A program made the position numbers and the translations under genes. Positions 1-9,324 of a stretch of DNA of 32,000 nucleotides are shown one piece after another. The stretch comes from Candidatus Saccharimonadota bacterium. GTDB lineage: Bacteria; Bacillota_I; Bacilli_A; Mycoplasmatales; Hepatoplasmataceae. The stretch's first letter is position 1. Every line of letters begins with the position of its first letter. The notes under the pieces were generated by a model that was not told where the DNA came from, did no database searches, and worked only from the letters and a program-made list of their open reading frames with translations. The DNA lies in contig AP027131.1 in assembly GCA_027925225.1 (NCBI GenBank), positions 510,001 through 542,000 on the forward strand. The letters are read 5' to 3'.

Positions 1-108
1 AGTAATTACAACAAACTTATTTTTTGGAATCTTAACATTTATATTTTTAAGATTATTTTCTCTTGCATTAGAAACAGTAATAAAGTCTCTATTATCTTTA
101 TTTATCAT
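1..108 (-). CDS. uvrA: Excinuclease ABC subunit A, N-terminal end (partial, runs off left edge)
   Basis: Reverse translation from the ATG at 108-106 gives [36 protein letters not shown]. This matches the conserved UvrA N-terminus (I-x-V-x-x-AR-x-x-NLKNI-x-V-x-IP-K/R-x-x-F/L-VVIT) that lies just before the first Walker A. Confidence 0.75.
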
Positions 109-244
109 AGAAAAATTATAGTAAATATTAAATAAGAAAAATTAATATTTTTATTTTTAAAAAATTAATAAATAAAAAAAATATTATAATTTTTTGTATA
201 AAAGGGAATAAATATAAAAAAACAAAAGGTGAATCATAAATAAA

Positions 245-2008
245 ATGGAATCTAAAAATTTTTTAATACCAAAAGGTTTTTGTCAAGAATTAATTGTCGA
301 AGAAGATGACAATGAATTAAAAAATATAAGTCAAAAATTTATTAATATTTTAGATGAAGAAAACGAAAAATATATAGAAGAAAAAAATAAAAAGGAAAAT
401 GAATTTAAAGAATATATAAATGATAAAAATGCTAAAAATTACTTTTTTGAACCAGAAATATTATCTAGAAGATCTCCGCTTACAATTATAAATGCTCCTT
501 GAGGAAGCGGAAAAACTTTTTTTATTGAAAATTTAATTAAATTGGCAATAGACGAAAAAGAAAAAGGAATAGATTTTAAAAACTTTAAAAAAATAATTAT
601 TATTGATGCTTGAAAATATTCTAATTCAGAAAACATACCAGATGAAATAATGTCAGAATTATTTTCAATTTTTATTAAACTTTATCCAAAATATAAGGAA
701 ATATTTAAAAAAATTGCTTATAAAATTTTTAATACAGCTGCAATACCATGAGCAAAAAAAATAAATATTGATATAAACAAAATTGATATAGAAAGAAAAG
801 AAAATGAAAACATTATAGATTATTTTAAAAAAACAAGTATTGAAAAAACAATTGTTTTCTTTGATAATATTGAAAGAATTGGCAAAAAAAGTTGAGAAAT
901 TTTAAAAGCAATTTTCAAAATACAACAATTTGATAATTTTGTTTTTGTTTTACCAATGAACATTAAGGGATTTAAAAATAATGAAAAAAATAATTCAGAA
1001 TATCCAATTGAAAAATTTATTGATATAAAATATTTTGAATTTAAACAAAATTATTTATCTCTTATTAAGGGGATGGGTTTTCATGAAAAAGAAGTAAAAA
1101 TAATAAATAGTATTCTTGATACAGAAATAGATGGACAAAAATTATCTATAAGAGAAGTAAAACAAAGATTTATAGCTAATAATATATTAAATATTAAAAA
1201 TGAATACGAAAGACTTTATAAAATATTTAAAAATATTTGAGGTTCTTCTTTAATTTTAAAAGAAAAAATTAACAAAGTTTCTTTTGAAATATATACAAAA
1301 AAAAGAGAATTTAAAGAAGAGACTAATGAATTTTTTAATTTAATTTCTAAAGAAATAAATAAATTTGAATTAACTGAAAAAATAAGGGAAATAATTAATG
1401 AATTATGAAAAAATACAAAAATGGAAGAATTATTAAGAAAAAGTAAAAGAAATAATTTTATTCAAATTAATGATTATGATTATTTTAAAAATTTCTTAAC
1501 AGAAGCGGAGAAAAATTTAGAAATTTTTTTAAATGAAAACAATAAAAATATTAAAAAGGAAAAAAATAATTTAACTGAAAATGAAAATTTAATTGAAAAT
1601 TATAAATCAAATAAAAAAGAAAATAATGATAAGATAATTAATCTAAAAAAAGAAAATCCTATTAATCATAAGGAAGTAGTTATACTTGAAACTGTAAATA
1701 AAAAAAATGAAGATTCTATTTACTTACATAATAAAAAAATTATTGAAAACAATAAAAAAATTTCAGTGATTAAAAACGAAATTGAGAAAAGTGAATTTGA
1801 TTTATTATTAATTAAAGAAATTAAAAATAAATTTACTAATAAACTTAATTTATTAAAAGATAAAAAAGTGAATATTGATTTATTTATAAAAGAAAAAAAT
1901 GAAAATCTTTTAGAACTAAGTGAAAAATACGAATATAATTTTGAAAATAAAGAAGATATTAATAGATTTTCAGATTTTAATTTTAATAAGCTTAATGAAA
2001 TATTTTAA
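245..2008 (+). CDS. KAP-family P-loop NTPase with a long K/N/E-rich coiled-coil-like C-terminal half
   Basis: Track ORFs 245-502, 956-1240 and 1421-2008 share one frame and are separated only by TGA codons, giving a single 587-codon frame with no TAA/TAG. It has a Walker A INAPWGSGKTFF (W encoded by TGA at 500-502). This is followed by IIIIDAWKYS, which resembles the KAP FNAW-x-Y motif. A Walker B-like IVFFDNIER (857-877, compare DDLDR) and then FVFVLPMN complete the pattern. Confidence 0.75.
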
Positions 2009-2934
2009 TTAGGATTACTAACAAGTAAAGTAAAATTACCATTTAAATTTATTTCTAATAATTCATCATAAGTTAATATTAAACTCTCGTATTTTTTAAT
2101 ATTAATATTATTTATACTTCCTTCACCTTTAATATTAGTAACAATTAAAAAATTATGATCTTGATAATTTTTTAATATATCTTCTCCAGAAATTACTCAT
2201 TTTTCTAAATTAAAAATACTATTTCTTATTAAAGAAGAAATCTTAAGATTATTAGAAGAAAAAATATTTTTAATCTCACTTTTAACATCAATATTTAAAT
2301 TTAAAACATTTAAAGCTTTTTTTACATCTAAAGGTCTTTTTTGCTTATTATCATCTAATCTATCATAATCATAAAAACGATAAGTAATGTCAGAAGATTG
2401 TTGAACTTCATAAAGAAAAGTATTTCCTTTAATTGCATGTAAAGTACCTGGCAATATATTAAAAACATCTCCTTTTTTTATTTTATAAGTACTTAAAATA
2501 TCATTCCATTTATTTTCTTTAATTTTATTTTTTATTTCTAATTTATCTTTTATCTTTGTTCCGATAATAATTTCATTGTATTTATTTGTATCTAATATAT
2601 ATCAAGCCTCTGATTTACCATAAGGGTAATTTTCTAATTCTTTTGCTTGTTCATCATTTGGATGTACTTGAATAGATAAATCTTCCTTTGCATCTATAAG
2701 TTTTATTAAAAGAGGAAAATAATCACTTTTATAATTATTAAATAATGGTTTATTATTTATATAAAAATCATATAAATTTACATTTTTATTTAAAATTTTT
2801 GAAGAATTATTTTTATATCCAGAAACAATTCAAGCTTCTCCAATTGCTTTATTATTTTTAATATTAAAAAAACTTGATAATCTTTTACCACCTCATATTT
2901 TTTCTGAAAAAACTGGTTCAATTTTTAAAATCAT
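2005..2934 (-). CDS. manA: Mannose-6-phosphate isomerase, class I
   Basis: The N-terminus reads MILKIEPVFSEKIWGGKRLSSF. The internal stretch LPGTLHAIKGNTFLYEVQQSSDITYRFYDYDRLDDNKQKRPL matches the class I PMI signature region. The frame is continuous through TGA codons from 2934 to the TAA at 2007-2005. Its stop overlaps the stop of the convergent KAP gene. Confidence 0.85.
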
Positions 2935-3077
2935 ATTTCTTATACTTTCTTTCTTTTGATTAAAATTTTTTTATTTCTAATTTCTTTAAAATCATCAAAA
3001 AAATAATAACAATAAATATTATTATTTTTAGTATTTAATATAATTTAAATTAAAAAATACAAAATTAATATTTTATA

Positions 3078-3410
3078 TTATTCTAAATTATTTATATTTT
3101 CCTCTTTTTGATTTTTTGCAATAAATTCTTTATCTTGTAAATTAATATTGAATATTAAATTAAAAACATATTTTAAACTAGATAAAAATAAAAATATATC
3201 AATAAAAATTAAAGCAGCAAGAATTATTTTTGAATTTTTTAATTCAGTACTATAAATATCTCAATTACTATAAGAAGAATTCATATTGCTCAATTTTTCT
3301 TTAAGATCTTCAATATTATGGTTAACATTTATCATTAATGGAATAAATAATAAAAATAAACCAAAAAATAAAATACATAATAATACTTTTTTATATTTAA
3401 CTTTTTCCAA
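3078..3410 (-). CDS. Hypothetical small membrane protein (110 aa, two hydrophobic segments)
   Basis: A TTG start at 3410 lies 8 nt after AAGAGGTGA. The frame stays open to the TAA at 3080-3078 with one internal TGA. The translation starts MEKVKYKKVLLCILFFGLFLLFIPLMI and later contains KIILAALIFIDIFLFLSS. It is absent from the track because of the TGA. No homology recognised. Confidence 0.4.
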
Positions 3411-3546
3411 ATTTATCACCTCTTAATTTTTTCTCTAAATAAAAATTCATCATAAATTTTAATAAAAATAAAAAAAAATAAATAATCTTTTTAAAAATTA
3501 TTTTACAAAGTATTATAATGACTTTGATATTGAAGCTAATAGGATA

Positions 3547-5832
3547 ATGAAAAATAATATTGAAAAATTTGTTGTTAATTTAGAGAAAAATGATTTAACA
3601 CAAAATGATATTTTTCAAATGATTTCTAACAAATTGTTTGAAAAACAATACATTAAAAACAAAGACGGATTAATTTTAAAATTAAAAGAAAGAGAAGACA
3701 ATATAAGCACTGGTATAGGTCAAGGTATGGCTATACCACATGCTAGTTTTAACGAGCTTAAAGAACCAAAGGTTTTTATTTTTCGTTTAAAAAATAGTAT
3801 GAAATGAAAAAATTCATTAGACGGGAAAAAAGTAGATTTAATAATTTCTATTTTAGTTCCCAAAAATGAAAGGAATAAACATTTTGAAATTTTAACAAAA
3901 TTTTCTTCTAGTTTAACTATTGAGGAAAATATTGAAAAATTTAGAAAATTACCAAAAAAACAATTAATTTATTTTATTGATAATGAAATATTTAATTCAG
4001 AAGAAAAGAAAGATGAAATATTAGAAGAGAGAGAGAGAGAGAGAGAGAGAGATAATAAAAATATATTTATAGTAGGTGTAACAACTTGTCCAACAGGAAT
4101 AGCGCACACCTTTATGGCAGCCACTGCACTTGAAAAAGAAGCAAAAAGTCGTGGTTGAAAAGTAAAAATTGAAAAACAAGCACAAATAACAAAAGATAAA
4201 TTAACTGCACAGGAAATTAAAGATGCAGATTATGTAATCTTTGCTGCAGGAAAAGGAATTGAAGAAATAGAAAGATTCTATGGTAAAAAACTTTATGAAG
4301 TAGATGTTGCAAAACCGATTACAAAAGCAAAAGAAGTTTTAGATGATTTACTTAAAAAAGCAAAACCTTTTAATGTTGGTGCAAAAAATAGTGAAACAGA
4401 AATTAATTCATTAGATAAAGAAAAAAAAGGTTTTAGCCAAGGGCCAATAAGACATTTACTTACAGGTATTTCTTATATGATCCCATTTATTGCAATGGCA
4501 GGAATTGTTTTAGGAATTACTTCTGCTGCTGGATTTGATACAGGTTGAATTAATCCTGATACAGGTATTGTAGTTCCGGGTCCATATGATGTACATCCAG
4601 AGGGTTGAACAGAAGAATGGACATATGGATTTGCGCCAGTAAATAATGCCGCGATGGCAGTTAATACTGTCGCGGGCGATGCTTTTACATTATTTATTCC
4701 AGTTCTTGGAGGTTATATTGCTTATTCAATTGCAGGTAGACATGCCATAGCACCAGCTATGATTACATCATTCTACTTAAATGATACTTCGGGAACAGCA
4801 CTATGAAATTACCAAGAGGGTACATTTGGAAATTTTGGTAGTGATCATTTGGTATCGCTAGGATTTTTAGGAGCAATTGCTGCTGGTTATTTAATAGGTT
4901 ATTCAGTATCATGATGAACAAAAAAAACCAGCAAGATAAATAATGCAGCTTTTCAAGCTGTTAATCCCTTATTAATAATTCCAATTTTATTTACAATGAT
5001 TCCTTGATTTTTCTTTGCATTTATTGGTTATTTACCATTATATTGAATTGCATATGGTTTAGGAGAAGGAATTGATGCTCTGGTTGATGCAAATCTCCTT
5101 TGGATTGCAGGTGGAATAATGGGTATAATGATTTGCTTTGATTTAGGGGGGCCAGTGAACAAGATGGCGATGGTTATTGGAGTTGGCTATTTAGCAACAA
5201 ATAATTATTTCCCATTATTAAATGGTGTTTGTGCTGTCTGTGTTTCTATTCCTCCTCTGGTTTTATTTCTTGCTTGTTATCTTGGAAAATATCTTGGTTT
5301 TAGAATGAATGAAGAAGATAAAGCAATGGCTACAACAGCAGGTATAATGGGATTCTTTGGAATAACTGAAGGTTCAATTCCTTTTGCTGCAAAAGATCCT
5401 AAAAGATACATGCCCGCATTTATGTTTGCTGGTTTTATTGCTGGTATGTTAGCTATAGCTACTGGCGTAGGAAACAATGTTGCAATGTGAGGAGGCCCAA
5501 TCATTTATATTGCTGGAGGTATGGGTCATTCACCAGATCATGTTACAACTAGTGCTGAATTTATGCAAGCTGATTGAGGATATGCTGCATGATACTTTGT
5601 TCCTTTAATAATTGGTGGTTTTGCAGGATTATTCGCACTTGCTTTCTTAAATTGAATGTATACAAAATCAGAAAGAAAAGAAAATAAAAATACAGATGAA
5701 ATTCTTGATGAGAATACTTCAAAAGTAAAAAAATATAAAAATAAAGAAATTAAAAAAAATAAAGAAAAAGAATCTATAAATTATGCAATACATATTAAAA
5801 ATCAAACATATTTTAATTACGCAATAATTTAG
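3547..5832 (+). CDS. fruA: PTS fructose-family transporter, fused IIA-IIB-IIC
   Basis: One frame runs from 3547 to the TAG at 5830-5832 with many TGA codons. The IIA (type 2) region contains GIGQGMAIPHA. The IIB region contains [32 protein letters not shown]. The IIC region contains MICFDLGGPVNKMAM and multiple hydrophobic helices. Confidence 0.9.
4027..4052 (+). repeat. Perfect (GA)13 dinucleotide microsatellite inside fruA, in the IIA-IIB linker
   Basis: Read directly: gagagagagagagagagagagagaga, 26 nt. In frame it encodes ERERERER between the IIA and IIB domains. Confidence 0.95.
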
Positions 5833-5850
5833 TATATAAAGATTTTTTAT

Positions 5851-5890
5851 AAAATAAAGACTAATTAATTAGTCTTTATTTTTTTTATTT
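5851..5890 (+). terminator. Rho-independent terminator downstream of fruA (perfect palindrome plus T-run)
   Basis: The sequence aaaataaagactaatt / aattagtctttatttt forms a perfect 16+16 nt inverted repeat at 5851-5882. A T-run follows, and the site is about 20 nt after the fruA stop. Confidence 0.6.
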
Positions 5891-5988
5891 TTACAAAATA
5901 AAAATAGGATAATGCTTAAATTTTATTACTAAAGGGCTAAGTCATTTAAATTTAGTTTATTAGATTTTTTAAATCAAAATAAATAAAA

Positions 5989-6131
5989 TTATCCTTTTAA
6001 CTCAGTAATAATATCTCTTAATTTAATAGCCTTTTCAAAATAATGTTTTTAGCTGCAAGAGTCATTTCTTTTTCAAGAAATTTACCTTTTATATTTTTAT
6101 TTAAAGCTGAAATTTTTATATTATTTTATGC
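5989..6131 (-). pseudogene. Decayed duplicate of the uvrB 3' end (last ~47 codons, UVR domain)
   Basis: It aligns colinearly and in the same orientation with 7381-7524, at roughly 85% identity by eye. A 1-nt deletion near 6045-6047 and a CAA-to-TAA change break the frame. The relic reads [23 protein letters not shown]...[15 protein letters not shown], against [41 protein letters not shown] in the intact gene. Confidence 0.8.
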
Positions 6132-6254
6132 TTTTTTATTATTAATTAAATAAAAAAAATATTTACATTTTTAAAAACCTTTTTATAAAAAAAAAAAATT
6201 AATTTTATATAAATTTATATTTCAAATTTTTACAAATATATTATAAAATTAGTT

Positions 6255-6319
6255 TAGGATGGTACTTAGGGATCATCAACAAGGGGTTAGTTCTTATGCA
6301 TCTAGCCCTTTTGCATTTT
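6255..6319 (+). ncRNA. Candidate small structured RNA or terminator-like element (unclassified)
   Basis: This is a local GC-rich patch (taggatggtacttagggatcatcaacaaggggttagttcttatgcatctagccctt) in otherwise almost pure A+T intergenic DNA. A hairpin pairs AAGGGGTTAG (6281-6290) with CTAGCCCTT (6302-6310), with one bulge and an 11-nt loop. It is followed by ttgcatttt on the plus strand only. I recognised no known RNA family. Confidence 0.25.
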
Positions 6320-6342
6320 AAGAACTTATAAAAAGCAAATAT

Positions 6343-7275
6343 TTAATTGTAATTTAAAAATTTAGAAAAATATTTTTTTAAATAATTAAATTTTTTTACA
6401 GATTTTGAATTTTCAAGTAAATTTTTGATATCAAAAATAAGTTTTCTAGCAATTTTATTTCTCAAAAAATCTTCTTGCTTATTTAAGTAATTAAACAAAG
6501 TATCGACTTTTTCTTTTTCCATTATTAAGTCACTTAAATGAGAAATAGCATTTCTATATTTTCTTGTGCTTTGTATTCTTTCAATAAAAATATTATTAAA
6601 AATCTTTTCATCTTTTTCTTTATTTGATAAATCTTTTTTATAAATTATTTTTCTAAGCTGATTTAATTTATGTTTATGAATAAAATTATAATTTGATAAT
6701 TCGTCTAAATTTATAAAGTTTTCATTTCATAATAATTTTAAAGTTTCTATTTTTTCGCAAAAAGAAAATTTATGAATTATTTTTGAAACATCTATTAAAT
6801 TATTTTTATCAAATATATTTTTTATTTTTTTGATATCAATCTTTTCTAAAATATAATTAAAATCTTTTTCAAAAAACATTACTTTCATATACAAAAATTT
6901 CTCAAGATAATATTCAAATGAAAAAACATAAGGGTATAATAAATTACTTAATTCTCTTTGTATTTTTTTCAAATCATTTAATAACGAATTCATATTTTTA
7001 ATAAAAATATTTTTGTTATTTTTTGAAAAATATAAAATCAATGGTCTAAATGATTTATAAAAATTTTCTAATAAATAAATATCTATTTTCCCGTTTTTTA
7101 TTGAATCATTAAAAAATGCAAATTTATTAAATTCACTTAGATTTCTATTTTTATCATAAATATAATTAAAATCAATTATTTTATTTCTAGTTAAAAAATT
7201 AATAATATTTTTATCAAATAAATTATTTTTTTTAAGCATATTTGATGCGTTAGTAAAAATTTTATCTGTTTTCAT
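6343..7275 (-). CDS. Hypothetical protein with Rx4H HEPN-type motif, Abi2 (AbiD/AbiF)-like candidate
   Basis: Track ORF 6727-7275 continues through the TGA at 6729-6727 to the TAA at 6345-6343, giving 310 aa. The C-terminal third contains IQSTRKYRNAISHLSDLI, and its RNAISH codons span 6555-6538. The motif and the protein length resemble the Abi_2 family consensus (l-RN-x-x-A/S-H). No other domain recognised. Confidence 0.5.
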
Positions 7276-7380
7276 AATACAATATTTTTTATTAAATGTT
7301 TAAAATTACAAAATCAAAAAAATTATATAAAAAATAATAAATTTTACTTGTAAAAATTAAAAATATAAATTTCAATAAAA

Positions 7381-9324
7381 TTAACCTTTTAATTCAGTAA
7401 TCATATCTCTTAATTTAATAGCTTTTTCAAAATCATACTTTTTAGCAGCAAGAGTCATTTCTTTTTCAAGCATTTTGATTTTATCTTTTTTATTTAAAGC
7501 CGAAATTTTTACATCTTTTTGTGCTAATTCTTCTATTAAAGGTTCTGGTATTTTTTTGATTATAGTTCGAGGAGTAATATTATTTGCTTTATTAAAAGCT
7601 AATTGAATTTCTCTTCTTCTTTCAGTTTCTCTTATTGCTTCTTTCATTGATTTAGTAAAATTAGTAGCGTAAAAAATAACATGACCATTTACATTTCTAG
7701 CAACTCTCCCTATCATTTGAATAAGCGATCTAGTATTTCTTAAAAATCCTTCTTTATCTGCTTCCAATACTGCAAGAAGGGAAACTTCTGGAACATCTAT
7801 CCCTTCTTTTAATAAGTTAATTCCTACAATCCCATCATAAAAACCAATTCTTAATTTTCTTAATACTTCTTCCCTTTGAAATGTTTTAAGTTCACTATGG
7901 AGATAAGCAATTGAAAAGCCTTTTTTTGTAAGAAATGAAGCAATATCCTCGGCTAGTTTTTTTGTTGTAGTATTTATAAAAACTCTCTCATTTCTATCTT
8001 TTCTTATTTGAATTTCTTTTATTAAATCATTTATTTGATTTTCTTCTTTTCTTATTTCAATAGTTGGATCAATAAGCCCTGTAGGTCTAATAATTTGTTC
8101 TACTACCTTATGATTTGCTTTTCCAAGTTCATAATCCCCTGGAGTTGCAGAAGTATAAATAACTTTATTCATTACTTTCTCAAATTCAGGAAATCTTAAT
8201 GGTCTGTTATCTAAAGCAGTTGGAAGTCTAAAACCATATTTTACAAGTGATTCTTTTCTTGACTTATCTCCTTCGTACATTCCTCTAATTTGTGGAATAG
8301 ACATATGTGACTCATCAACTATTAAAAGAAAATCTTTTGGAAAATATGAAAAAAGGGTAGCAGGAGGTTCTCCTGATTTTCTCCATGGCTCAAAATAAAT
8401 TGAATAATTTTCAATTCCAGAAGTCATCCCAAATTCTTCAAATTGTTCTATATCAAAATTTACTTTATTTTCAAGTCTTTGTTTTTCAAGACGTAAATCT
8501 TCTTTTTCAAAATAACTTAATCTTTCTTTTAAATCTTTTTTAATATTTTTAACAGCATTAGCCAATAAAGATTGAGAAAAAACATTGGGATTTGCAGGTG
8601 TAATTGTAAAACTTTTATAAAACTTTAATACATCTTTGTTAAGAGAATCAATTTCTACAATTTCTTCTATAACATCATCAAAAGTATCAATCCTTAAATT
8701 AAATTGATCAGTTCAAGAAGGAGCAAGCTCAATCAAATCACCATTTACAATAAAATTACCAGGAGAAAGATCTGATGATCTTTTATATCCTAGTTTTATT
8801 AATTTATGTAAAAATTCATTTTTATTAATTTTTTGTTTTAATGAAATTTCAAAATGATGTTTTTTATATTCATCAGGAGAACGATGACCATAAATAGAAG
8901 CAACAGAAGAAACAACAATTACATCATTTCTAGAAGTAAGTGCATTAAGTGCTGAATTACGCATCATTTCAATTTGTCAATTTTGTACAGATTGTTTTTC
9001 AATATAAGTATCAGTTTTAGGAAGATATGCTTCTGGTTGATAAAAATCAAAATTTGAAATATAATATTCAACTCTATTATTGGGAAATAAATCTTTTAAT
9101 TCTATAAATAATTGATTAGCAAGAGTTTTATTGTGTGCCATTACAAGGGTTGGTCTTTTATATTTTTCAATAACATTAGCCATTGTAAAAGTTTTCCCAG
9201 TTCCAGTTGCTCCCAAAAGAACAATATGGTCTTTACTTTTTAATTGCTCTAAAATTTCTTTTATTGCTCTTGGTTGATCACCTGATGGAATTTTATCGGT
9301 AATTAACTCAAAATTTCTTTCCAT
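7381..9324 (-). CDS. uvrB: Excinuclease ABC subunit B
   Basis: Three track ORFs (8977-9324, 8713-8967, 7381-8565) share one frame and are joined by TGA codons. The sequence contains [17 protein letters not shown] (Walker A), DESH, helicase motifs and the C-terminal UVR domain. Total 647 aa. Confidence 0.95.

Follow-up and report, generated by a model that had tools for sequence, protein, structure and literature searches.

The 32-kb window considered here, by which we mean the whole stretch of DNA that was analysed, comes from Candidatus Hepatoplasma vulgare, a mollicute and hepatopancreas symbiont of terrestrial isopods, and it carries the end of the repair gene uvrB twice, in the same orientation, with one orphan gene (HPAVJP_4350) between the copies. 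Our favoured explanation, held with about even confidence, is that the duplicated uvrB tail is the scar of a duplication-based rearrangement of the uvrB-uvrA spacer, which took place in the H. vulgare lineage after its split from a sister genome recovered from Logan run ERR14127475. The initial annotation had taken the same layout for the footprint of an element that inserted into the 3′ end of uvrB. DNA was indeed placed behind uvrB, the tail was duplicated and the displaced copy is decaying, but the insert is neither foreign nor site-specific. The window has a GC content of 22% and its genes read through TGA, which implies genetic code 4. The genes and repeat copies that bear most directly on the argument are the following (window coordinates).

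7381 to 9324, minus strand: uvrB, 647 amino acids, intact by code-4 translation.
7374 to 7539, minus strand: copy a, the functional 3′ end of uvrB, with ~155 nucleotides (nt) of coding sequence, the stop codon and 7 nt, in frame with uvrB.
105 nt: spacer between uvrB and the orphan gene.
6343 to 7275, minus strand: orphan gene HPAVJP_4350, 310 amino acids, intact, the only coding sequence (CDS) between the repeats.
5982 to 6145, minus strand: copy b, the relic, frameshifted, with stop codons and detached from any gene body.

Local alignment pairs window 5982-6145 with 7374-7539, so that the repeat covers ~155 nt ahead of the uvrB stop codon, the codon itself and 7 nt beyond, with 144 of 161 aligned bases identical and small indels of 1-2 nt. 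The resulting identity of 89% replaces the ~85% that had been estimated by eye. The pair scores 203, whereas ~460 random 330-nt pieces of the window, aligned with the same query, average 32 and never exceed 56, and a repeat search of the window returned the same direct pair (D1/D2) at a spacing of 1392-1393. The same-orientation duplication first noticed by inspection is therefore borne out with refined limits, as is the single CDS between the copies, which is one intact code-4 frame. When translated, the relic tracks the UvrB C-terminus residue by residue, interrupted by one frameshift and by stop codons; the 1-nt deletion and premature stop that had been reported for it are found among these lesions. 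A residue-by-residue match of this kind argues for colinear coding homology rather than AT-rich low complexity, an objection that had been raised in advance and that formal alignment disposes of. Beyond the inner edge of the relic, at 6145, the alignment detects no uvrB homology. UvrB itself has the length of its orthologs and all UvrB Pfam domains (precomputed assignments), and is 100% identical to the Ca. Hepatoplasma vulgare entry. The attached copy a is kept under selection, and the detached copy b has drifted.

Comparison with relatives places this scar in a wider rearrangement. When one genome per species was scanned with UvrB, none of the Hepatoplasma relatives recovered exceeded 69% identity, and a large protein database supplied two closer ones, P0004 (94%), from the sister genome, and P0005 (81%). 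In the sister, the locus lies on two contigs. The first (L082) ends 170 nt past uvrB, within the left half of a 48-nt perfect palindrome, and the second (L081) runs from the other half of the palindrome through a phosphotransferase system (PTS) gene, a mannose-6-phosphate isomerase (PMI) gene, a 274-amino-acid gene, a KAP-family gene and a 311-amino-acid homolog of the orphan protein to uvrA. We infer the join of the two contigs across the palindrome, and synteny with the window backs it. The palindrome itself (L082 12067-12114; L081 1-27) is a bidirectional terminator between uvrB and the PTS gene, and it probably caused the Logan contig to break at this point. With E denoting a 79-nt element described below and the block denoting the 6-kb PTS/PMI/KAP segment (window 218-5832; L081 37-5961), the two gene orders read:

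H. vulgare (minus strand, code 4): uvrB, orphan gene, E1, dead uvrB tail, E2, terminator, block, uvrA.
Sister: uvrB, E, terminator, block, E, orphan gene, uvrA.

The remaining parts of the window that enter into this comparison are:

5856 to 5877: palindromic hairpin that resembles a bidirectional terminator and separates E2 from the PTS stop codon, read from the sequence; it is the positional counterpart of the 48-nt palindrome at the L082/L081 contig break.
3547 to 5832, plus strand: PTS EIIABC, convergent with uvrB, the first gene of the block.
Between PTS EIIABC and KAP: PMI, in the middle of the block.
245 to 2008, plus strand: KAP-family P-loop NTPase (Pfam PF07693, E = 1.8e-12), the last gene of the block, with an ortholog in L081.
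112 to 125, minus strand: promoter-like TTTACTATAATTTT, upstream of uvrA.
1 to 108, minus strand: 5′ end of uvrA, its first 108 nt, at the left edge of the window.

In the sister, uvrB is followed directly by E, the terminator and the convergent PTS gene, that is, by the sequence found to the left of the relic in the window. The empty site that had been proposed as a check thus exists, given the join of the two contigs. The orphan gene of the sister lies at the opposite end of the 6-kb block, adjoining uvrA, and the counterpart of that site in the window, the KAP-uvrA junction, is empty and has a single copy of TTTACTATAATTTT. The sister has two copies of this motif, 1,226 nt apart and flanking E and the orphan gene, where the expected count is 0.007 per strand.

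The relic also allows the event to be placed in time. When relic, copy a, sister and outgroup were compared at 141 sites, 14 differences proved private to the relic and four to copy a, and the two copies had six differences from the sister in common. Two of these six are derived with respect to the outgroup (a Leu codon, CTT to TTA), and since derived changes are common to both copies, the duplication arose in the H. vulgare lineage after the split from the sister. The relic has drifted by about 12% private substitutions and indels; if it is assumed to be neutral, and with a synonymous divergence (dS) of ~0.5 between the genomes, the duplication would date very roughly to 0.6 of the way back to the sister split, a figure that is our own arithmetic from the relic differences and the inter-genome dS.

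The gene enclosed by the repeats is not foreign to the locus, judging from the sequences and positions of its relatives. Its CDS contains TGA as a Trp codon and is therefore split in open reading frame (ORF) lists made with table 11; read with code 4, the protein is 100% identical to HPAVJP_4350 of Ca. Hepatoplasma vulgare and has 55% amino acid identity to its 311-amino-acid ortholog in the sister. Between window and sister, the orphan gene has a dS of 0.53 and a nonsynonymous-to-synonymous ratio (dN/dS) of 0.59. The neighbouring genes have dS values of 0.49 (uvrB), 0.67 (PTS), 0.43 (PMI) and 0.62 (KAP), and because the orphan gene falls within this range of 0.43-0.67, the two genes are orthologs that diverged together with the locus. 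It is a fast-evolving gene, with a dN/dS similar to that of KAP (0.58). In an exhaustive HMMER search the family proved to have only seven representatives, all in Hepatoplasma-like genomes. Homologs occupy the uvrB-uvrA spacer of H. scabrum and of two further loci (L086 and L087), where the proteins P0124 (H. scabrum), P0125 and P0123 are encoded between the small ORF that follows uvrB and uvrA itself, in reverse orientation; the other member that could be placed, P0126, lies elsewhere, after a ribosomal operon. The family is thus an old tenant of the uvrB-uvrA spacer in the genus. The earlier idea of an incoming cassette consequently fails, as the ortholog is found only 6 kb away in the same interval of the sister, with a dS like that of its flanks, and three other Hepatoplasma genomes have homologs. 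One family member, P0123 (L087 5151-6659, 502 amino acids), is longer than the others because its C-terminal region is doubled, giving two matched stretches and adding ~140 aligned columns, which in the alignment looks like an internal tandem duplication of the half that contains the RNxISH motif discussed below.

The spacer that these genes occupy varies considerably across the genus. Only in the clade of H. vulgare and ERR14127475 are uvrB and uvrA split by the 6-kb block; it is missing from this position in the relative with 81% UvrB identity (P0005, locus L083) and in all more distant genomes. In that relative, uvrB is followed by two small reverse ORFs and then by uvrA, with neither block nor orphan gene. 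The two ORFs (L083 12005-12600) encode 88 amino acids each and take the position of the orphan gene; they may represent a small pair of the toxin-antitoxin kind. In the most distant Hepatoplasma relatives (L002 and L004), uvrA comes immediately after uvrB or overlaps with it. A small membrane ORF is found after uvrB in H. crinochetorum and H. scabrum; this conserved gene for a predicted membrane protein of 74 amino acids (L001 12017-12240, with equivalents in L003, L086 and L087) is missing from the H. vulgare clade, where E holds its position. No sequence similarity was detected between the 74-amino-acid gene and E.

These observations bear on the explanation first proposed for the locus, in which a site-specific element with a tyrosine or serine recombinase integrated at the 3′ end of uvrB and has since lost its integrase. 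In favour of this, the direct repeats consist of the 3′ end of uvrB, its intact copy adjoins the gene body, and the sister has an empty site. Yet the space between the repeats holds only the orphan CDS, E and AT-rich spacers, with no recombinase gene or pseudogene. The absence of an integrase had been recorded from the outset, and Pfam scans of this segment and of the other ORFs of the window agree, finding no recombinase family in the 32 kb and only housekeeping families among the previously unassigned ORFs. The cargo, moreover, is the ortholog of a gene already resident in the locus, and patchwork copies of nearby sequence, including an inverted one, would be left unexplained. A tRNA/tmRNA scan of the window found none, so there is no RNA gene to serve as a target, and searching the literature for integration at uvrB turned up nothing relevant; the paper on the H. 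vulgare genome (PMC10928387) makes no mention of uvrB, uvrA, rearrangements or mobile elements. We regard a decayed integrative element as very improbable and as the least likely of the readings considered. The lack of a recombinase, the resident cargo and the additional scraps, one of them inverted, argue against site-specific integration and for copy-based rearrangement.

The first of these additional pieces is E, of which each of the two sister genomes has two copies, always at the junctions of rearranged pieces.

6240 to 6318, minus strand: E1, a relatively GC-rich copy of 79 nt that closely follows the orphan gene; it scores 91.7 bits with the covariance model.
5890 to 5968, minus strand: E2, the AT-decayed copy, which closely follows the relic; it scores 66.9 bits (E = 1e-10) with the same model.
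L082 11965-12040 and L081 6187-6262: the sister copies, Ea after uvrB and Eb before the orphan gene.

The position of E2 is that of Ea after uvrB in the sister. E1 had been described as a GC-rich hairpin; it is a relatively GC-rich element, but as a whole it folds no better than shuffled sequences (z = -0.23), and its second copy, at 5890-5968, had been overlooked. There is a conserved 7-bp stem (AAGGGYTAG/CTAAYCC), and the consensus of the four copies supports an 11-pair structure only, with weak covariation. A search of 190 kb of related loci with the covariance model recovered the four known copies only. Rfam gave no gathering-score match in the window, and only chance-level matches within 5800-6400 at E <= 10, and a metagenome scan with the hairpin pattern of E returned only generic palindromic hairpins (at most 37 bits, against 67-92 for true copies). 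Two further ideas were abandoned. E1 might have been left over from the 5′ end of uvrA or from a coding gene, but it gave no match and every reading frame contains stop codons; and the copies seemed at first to form two subtypes, E1 with Eb and E2 with Ea, which site patterns of 7/5/4 do not resolve. E could be a terminator, a leader, a small RNA or a recombination substrate.

Smaller scraps of local sequence lie between the orphan gene and the relic.

6193 to 6244, plus strand: inverted copy of the uvrB stop region and 40 nt downstream, 44/52 identical to 7337-7390 (I1 of the repeat search).
7337 to 7390, minus strand: its partner arm, which takes in the last uvrB codons, the stop codon and 40 nt at the start of the spacer that leads to the orphan gene.
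6145 to 6213, minus strand: ~70 nt abutting the relic and resembling 127-202, the spacer upstream of uvrA.

The 52-nt inverted copy adjoins E1 and is the best non-self match among 15,524 scanned windows. As a pair, the two arms form an inverted repeat (85%) that brackets the orphan gene and E1, with the uvrB stop codon in one arm, and could be the trace of an inversion; the orphan gene has the opposite orientation in H. scabrum, L086 and L087. The stretches 6145-6213 and 127-202 are reciprocal best non-self matches among 7,266 windows, and a match of this kind beside the relic had been predicted from a tandem-duplication model before the search was made. Sequence similarity is thus suggestive of a copied uvrA-upstream spacer, which would make 6145/6146, where uvrA-spacer-like sequence is joined to the uvrB tail, a candidate duplication junction, with the spacer similarity near noise. 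The direct pairs (uvrB tail, E and, more weakly, the uvrA-spacer-like stretch) are colinear in both halves. In the sister, L081 6021-6059 and 7282-7320 form a decayed 39-nt copy (82%) of the uvrA promoter and first four codons, with ATG changed to AAG, on the far side of Eb and the orphan gene, in a mirror image of the uvrB-tail duplication; by local-alignment score it comes close to what such AT-rich sequence gives by chance. A search of the sister for a relic of the uvrB tail upstream of E found nothing significant.

In this clade the ancestral uvrB-uvrA operon is split by the 6-kb block and by the orphan gene with E. We postulate that the orphan gene was relocated across the block by a process that copied DNA instead of cutting it at a defined site. 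One route would be a tandem duplication of a unit that began ~155 nt ahead of the uvrB stop codon and reached nearly to uvrA, ending just upstream of it; complementary deletions would then have cost the first copy its block and the second its orphan gene. Another would be template-switching repair that stitched in pieces of nearby sequence. By either route the last ~165 nt of uvrB would be written twice, and the second E, the inverted 52-nt copy and the uvrA-spacer-like stretch would be by-products of the same kind of event. The tandem duplication accounts for the colinear pairs of uvrB tail, E and uvrA spacer, and template switching accounts better for the inverted piece. No recombinase, attachment core or foreign cargo appears to have been involved.

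Several observations weigh against this explanation. We found no single simple event that would derive both genome orders from one ancestor: because E follows the orphan gene here and precedes it in the sister, at least one more step must be assumed, and the tandem-duplication route already requires three events. The deletions it entails have left no detectable fragments: the interval from E1 to the relic has none of PTS, PMI or KAP, and neither the stretch from the relic to E2 nor the KAP-uvrA junction has any of the orphan gene. The uvrA-spacer match, with scores of 65-67, barely exceeds the noise ceiling of 62-64 for AT-rich sequence, and the four E copies, with their conflicting site patterns, give no clear tree. 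One codon, moreover, is TTT in the relic and the sister and ATG in copy a and the outgroup, a conflict that hints that the copies may lack a purely intragenomic history. Finally, the databases hold one close relative only, and the arrangement in that relative depends on joining two contigs over a palindrome.

The pattern of empty sites could also be read in another way, in which the orphan gene and E form a non-autonomous mobile module of ~1.1-1.2 kb that moves via a circle and is integrated in trans, or by a Campbell-type event with borrowed homology, so that each insertion duplicates the gene end that it hits, namely the 3′ end of uvrB in H. vulgare and, in the sister, the 5′ end of uvrA. 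In both genomes a direct repeat of the adjoining gene end is found (165 nt of uvrB; 39 nt of uvrA at 82%), each genome is empty where the other has the module, and the order of gene and E is circularly permuted between them, as if a circle had been opened at different points; a family member also stands in an unrelated context in AP027132. Set against this are the lack of any recombinase or transposase and of terminal repeats or conserved ends common to the two insertions, and the flanks outside the CDS, which are AT-rich and show no homology between window and sister above that of shuffles. No known transposition chemistry would account for target duplications of 39 and 165 nt, the 39-nt repeat is itself close to noise, and no gene-end repeats were found around the orphan homologs in four other genomes (L003, L086, L087 and L088). 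In addition, the dS of the orphan gene matches that of its neighbours, with no sign of independent acquisition, the module is single-copy and its family has seven representatives confined to Hepatoplasma-like genomes, and the cyclic order of gene, E and uvrA spacer differs between the two genomes, so that one circle cannot explain both. We consider such a module unlikely, though it deserves serious attention. It is tempting to speculate further that the orphan gene and E represent a new kind of tiny, recombinase-less module of Hepatoplasma, hopping between gene ends within and between loci in circular form, with a target duplication of tens to hundreds of bases that spares the host gene, with the uvrB 3′ and uvrA 5′ ends as two landing sites, and with E as its cis site or RNA, but we think this bolder proposal slightly less probable still.

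In a different reading, it was the 6-kb block and not the orphan gene that was inserted. The relic would then be the truncated left end of a fragment imported from a sibling strain with the order uvrB, E, terminator, PTS/PMI/KAP and uvrA. This fragment would have begun 155 nt ahead of the stop codon of the donor uvrB; homology within or close to uvrA would have anchored it, and its left end would have become attached behind the orphan gene and E of the recipient by homology-facilitated illegitimate recombination. A single event would yield the observed order, including the uvrA-spacer-like sequence beside the relic and E2 after it, and would explain both the sharp inner boundary of the relic, with no further uvrB homology, and the presence of TTT in the relic, as in the sister, where copy a has ATG. 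However, the two derived substitutions common to copies a and b mean that the donor must have been very close to H. vulgare, the dS of PTS, PMI and KAP relative to the sister is like that of uvrB and gives no sign of a separate history for the block, and the recipient would have to descend from a block-less ancestor, yet the sister already has the block. We judge such an import improbable and retain the copy-based rearrangement of the spacer as the favoured explanation. Within the block, a GA/TC dinucleotide run at window 3969-4185 encodes an (ER)n linker of the PTS protein, and the opposite strand of this run reads SLSLSL in spurious table-11 ORFs.

As for the orphan protein, its assignment as Rx4H/Abi2-like has held in part. 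An R-N-x-I-S-H-L motif is invariant in all eight aligned sequences (here R241-N-A-I-S-H246), and its RNxISH core fits the Rx4-6H pattern of HEPN proteins; the Abi2 label finds no support in Pfam, PADLOC, NCBIfam, PDB sequences or Foldseek. None of the eight aligned family members has a Pfam match at E <= 1, the Abi_2 profile included, PADLOC and NCBIfam give no match for the family, and a profile search of PDB sequences gives none either. An AlphaFold model built from the eight-sequence alignment is all-helical, with a predicted local distance difference test score (pLDDT) of 82 and a predicted template modelling score (pTM) of 0.78, and Foldseek searches of this model against PDB and BFVD found no match below E = 1. 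An HEPN-like RNase role may be guessed at from the motif.

These findings offer a base-level view of how gene order changes in a tiny, very AT-rich symbiont genome without obvious mobile-element machinery. The essential repair operon uvrB-uvrA appears to serve as a local dumping ground, in which copy-based shuffling spares the flanking genes and leaves behind pseudo-ends that can be dated, the relic acting as a rough internal clock. Two uncharacterised items that occur only in Hepatoplasma also merit notice, namely the helical, fast-evolving protein with its invariant RNxISH motif and the conserved 79-nt element that travels with the rearrangements. Were the mobile-module alternative to prove true, it would represent a new mechanism of mobility.

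Three known systems offer points of comparison. The orphan protein resembles the HEPN Abi proteins (Abi2/AbiD/AbiF, PF07751) in being ~300 amino acids long and all-helical with an invariant R-N-x-x-x-H (RNAISH) in its C-terminal half, and its context is also similar, as the gene is fast-evolving and adjoins a KAP NTPase; unlike those proteins, its family matches neither the Pfam Abi_2 profile nor any entry of PADLOC, NCBIfam or the PDB profile search. At the level of the locus, one parallel is with integrative elements. The elements e14 and phage 21 integrate at icd of Escherichia coli and supply a replacement 3′ end, and genomic islands do likewise at tRNA and tmRNA genes. The direct duplication of a 3′ end, the intact gene, the decaying displaced copy and the empty site in a relative are all features that the uvrB locus has in common with these. 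It differs from them in having no integrase and no foreign cargo, in its extra direct and inverted local copies, and in that the sister has the same gene bracketed by the duplicated 5′ end of a different gene.

Another analogy is with rearrangement by copying. Tandem duplication followed by complementary loss (TDRL) is a model of gene-order change, and fork stalling and template switching (FoSTeS) and microhomology-mediated break-induced replication (MMBIR) are forms of template-switching repair that give templated patchwork insertions. The present case departs from these in that no full-duplication intermediate is available, that remnants of the lost copies are not detectable, and that the order of E and the orphan gene conflicts. 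It agrees with them in that gene order has changed without inversion, that truncated and decaying partial copies lie at the junctions, and that short paralogous segments are colinear while at least one piece is inverted. For now, the duplicated uvrB tail is a scar of rearrangement whose general type is already known, ordinary but instructive, in a genome that is itself unusual.

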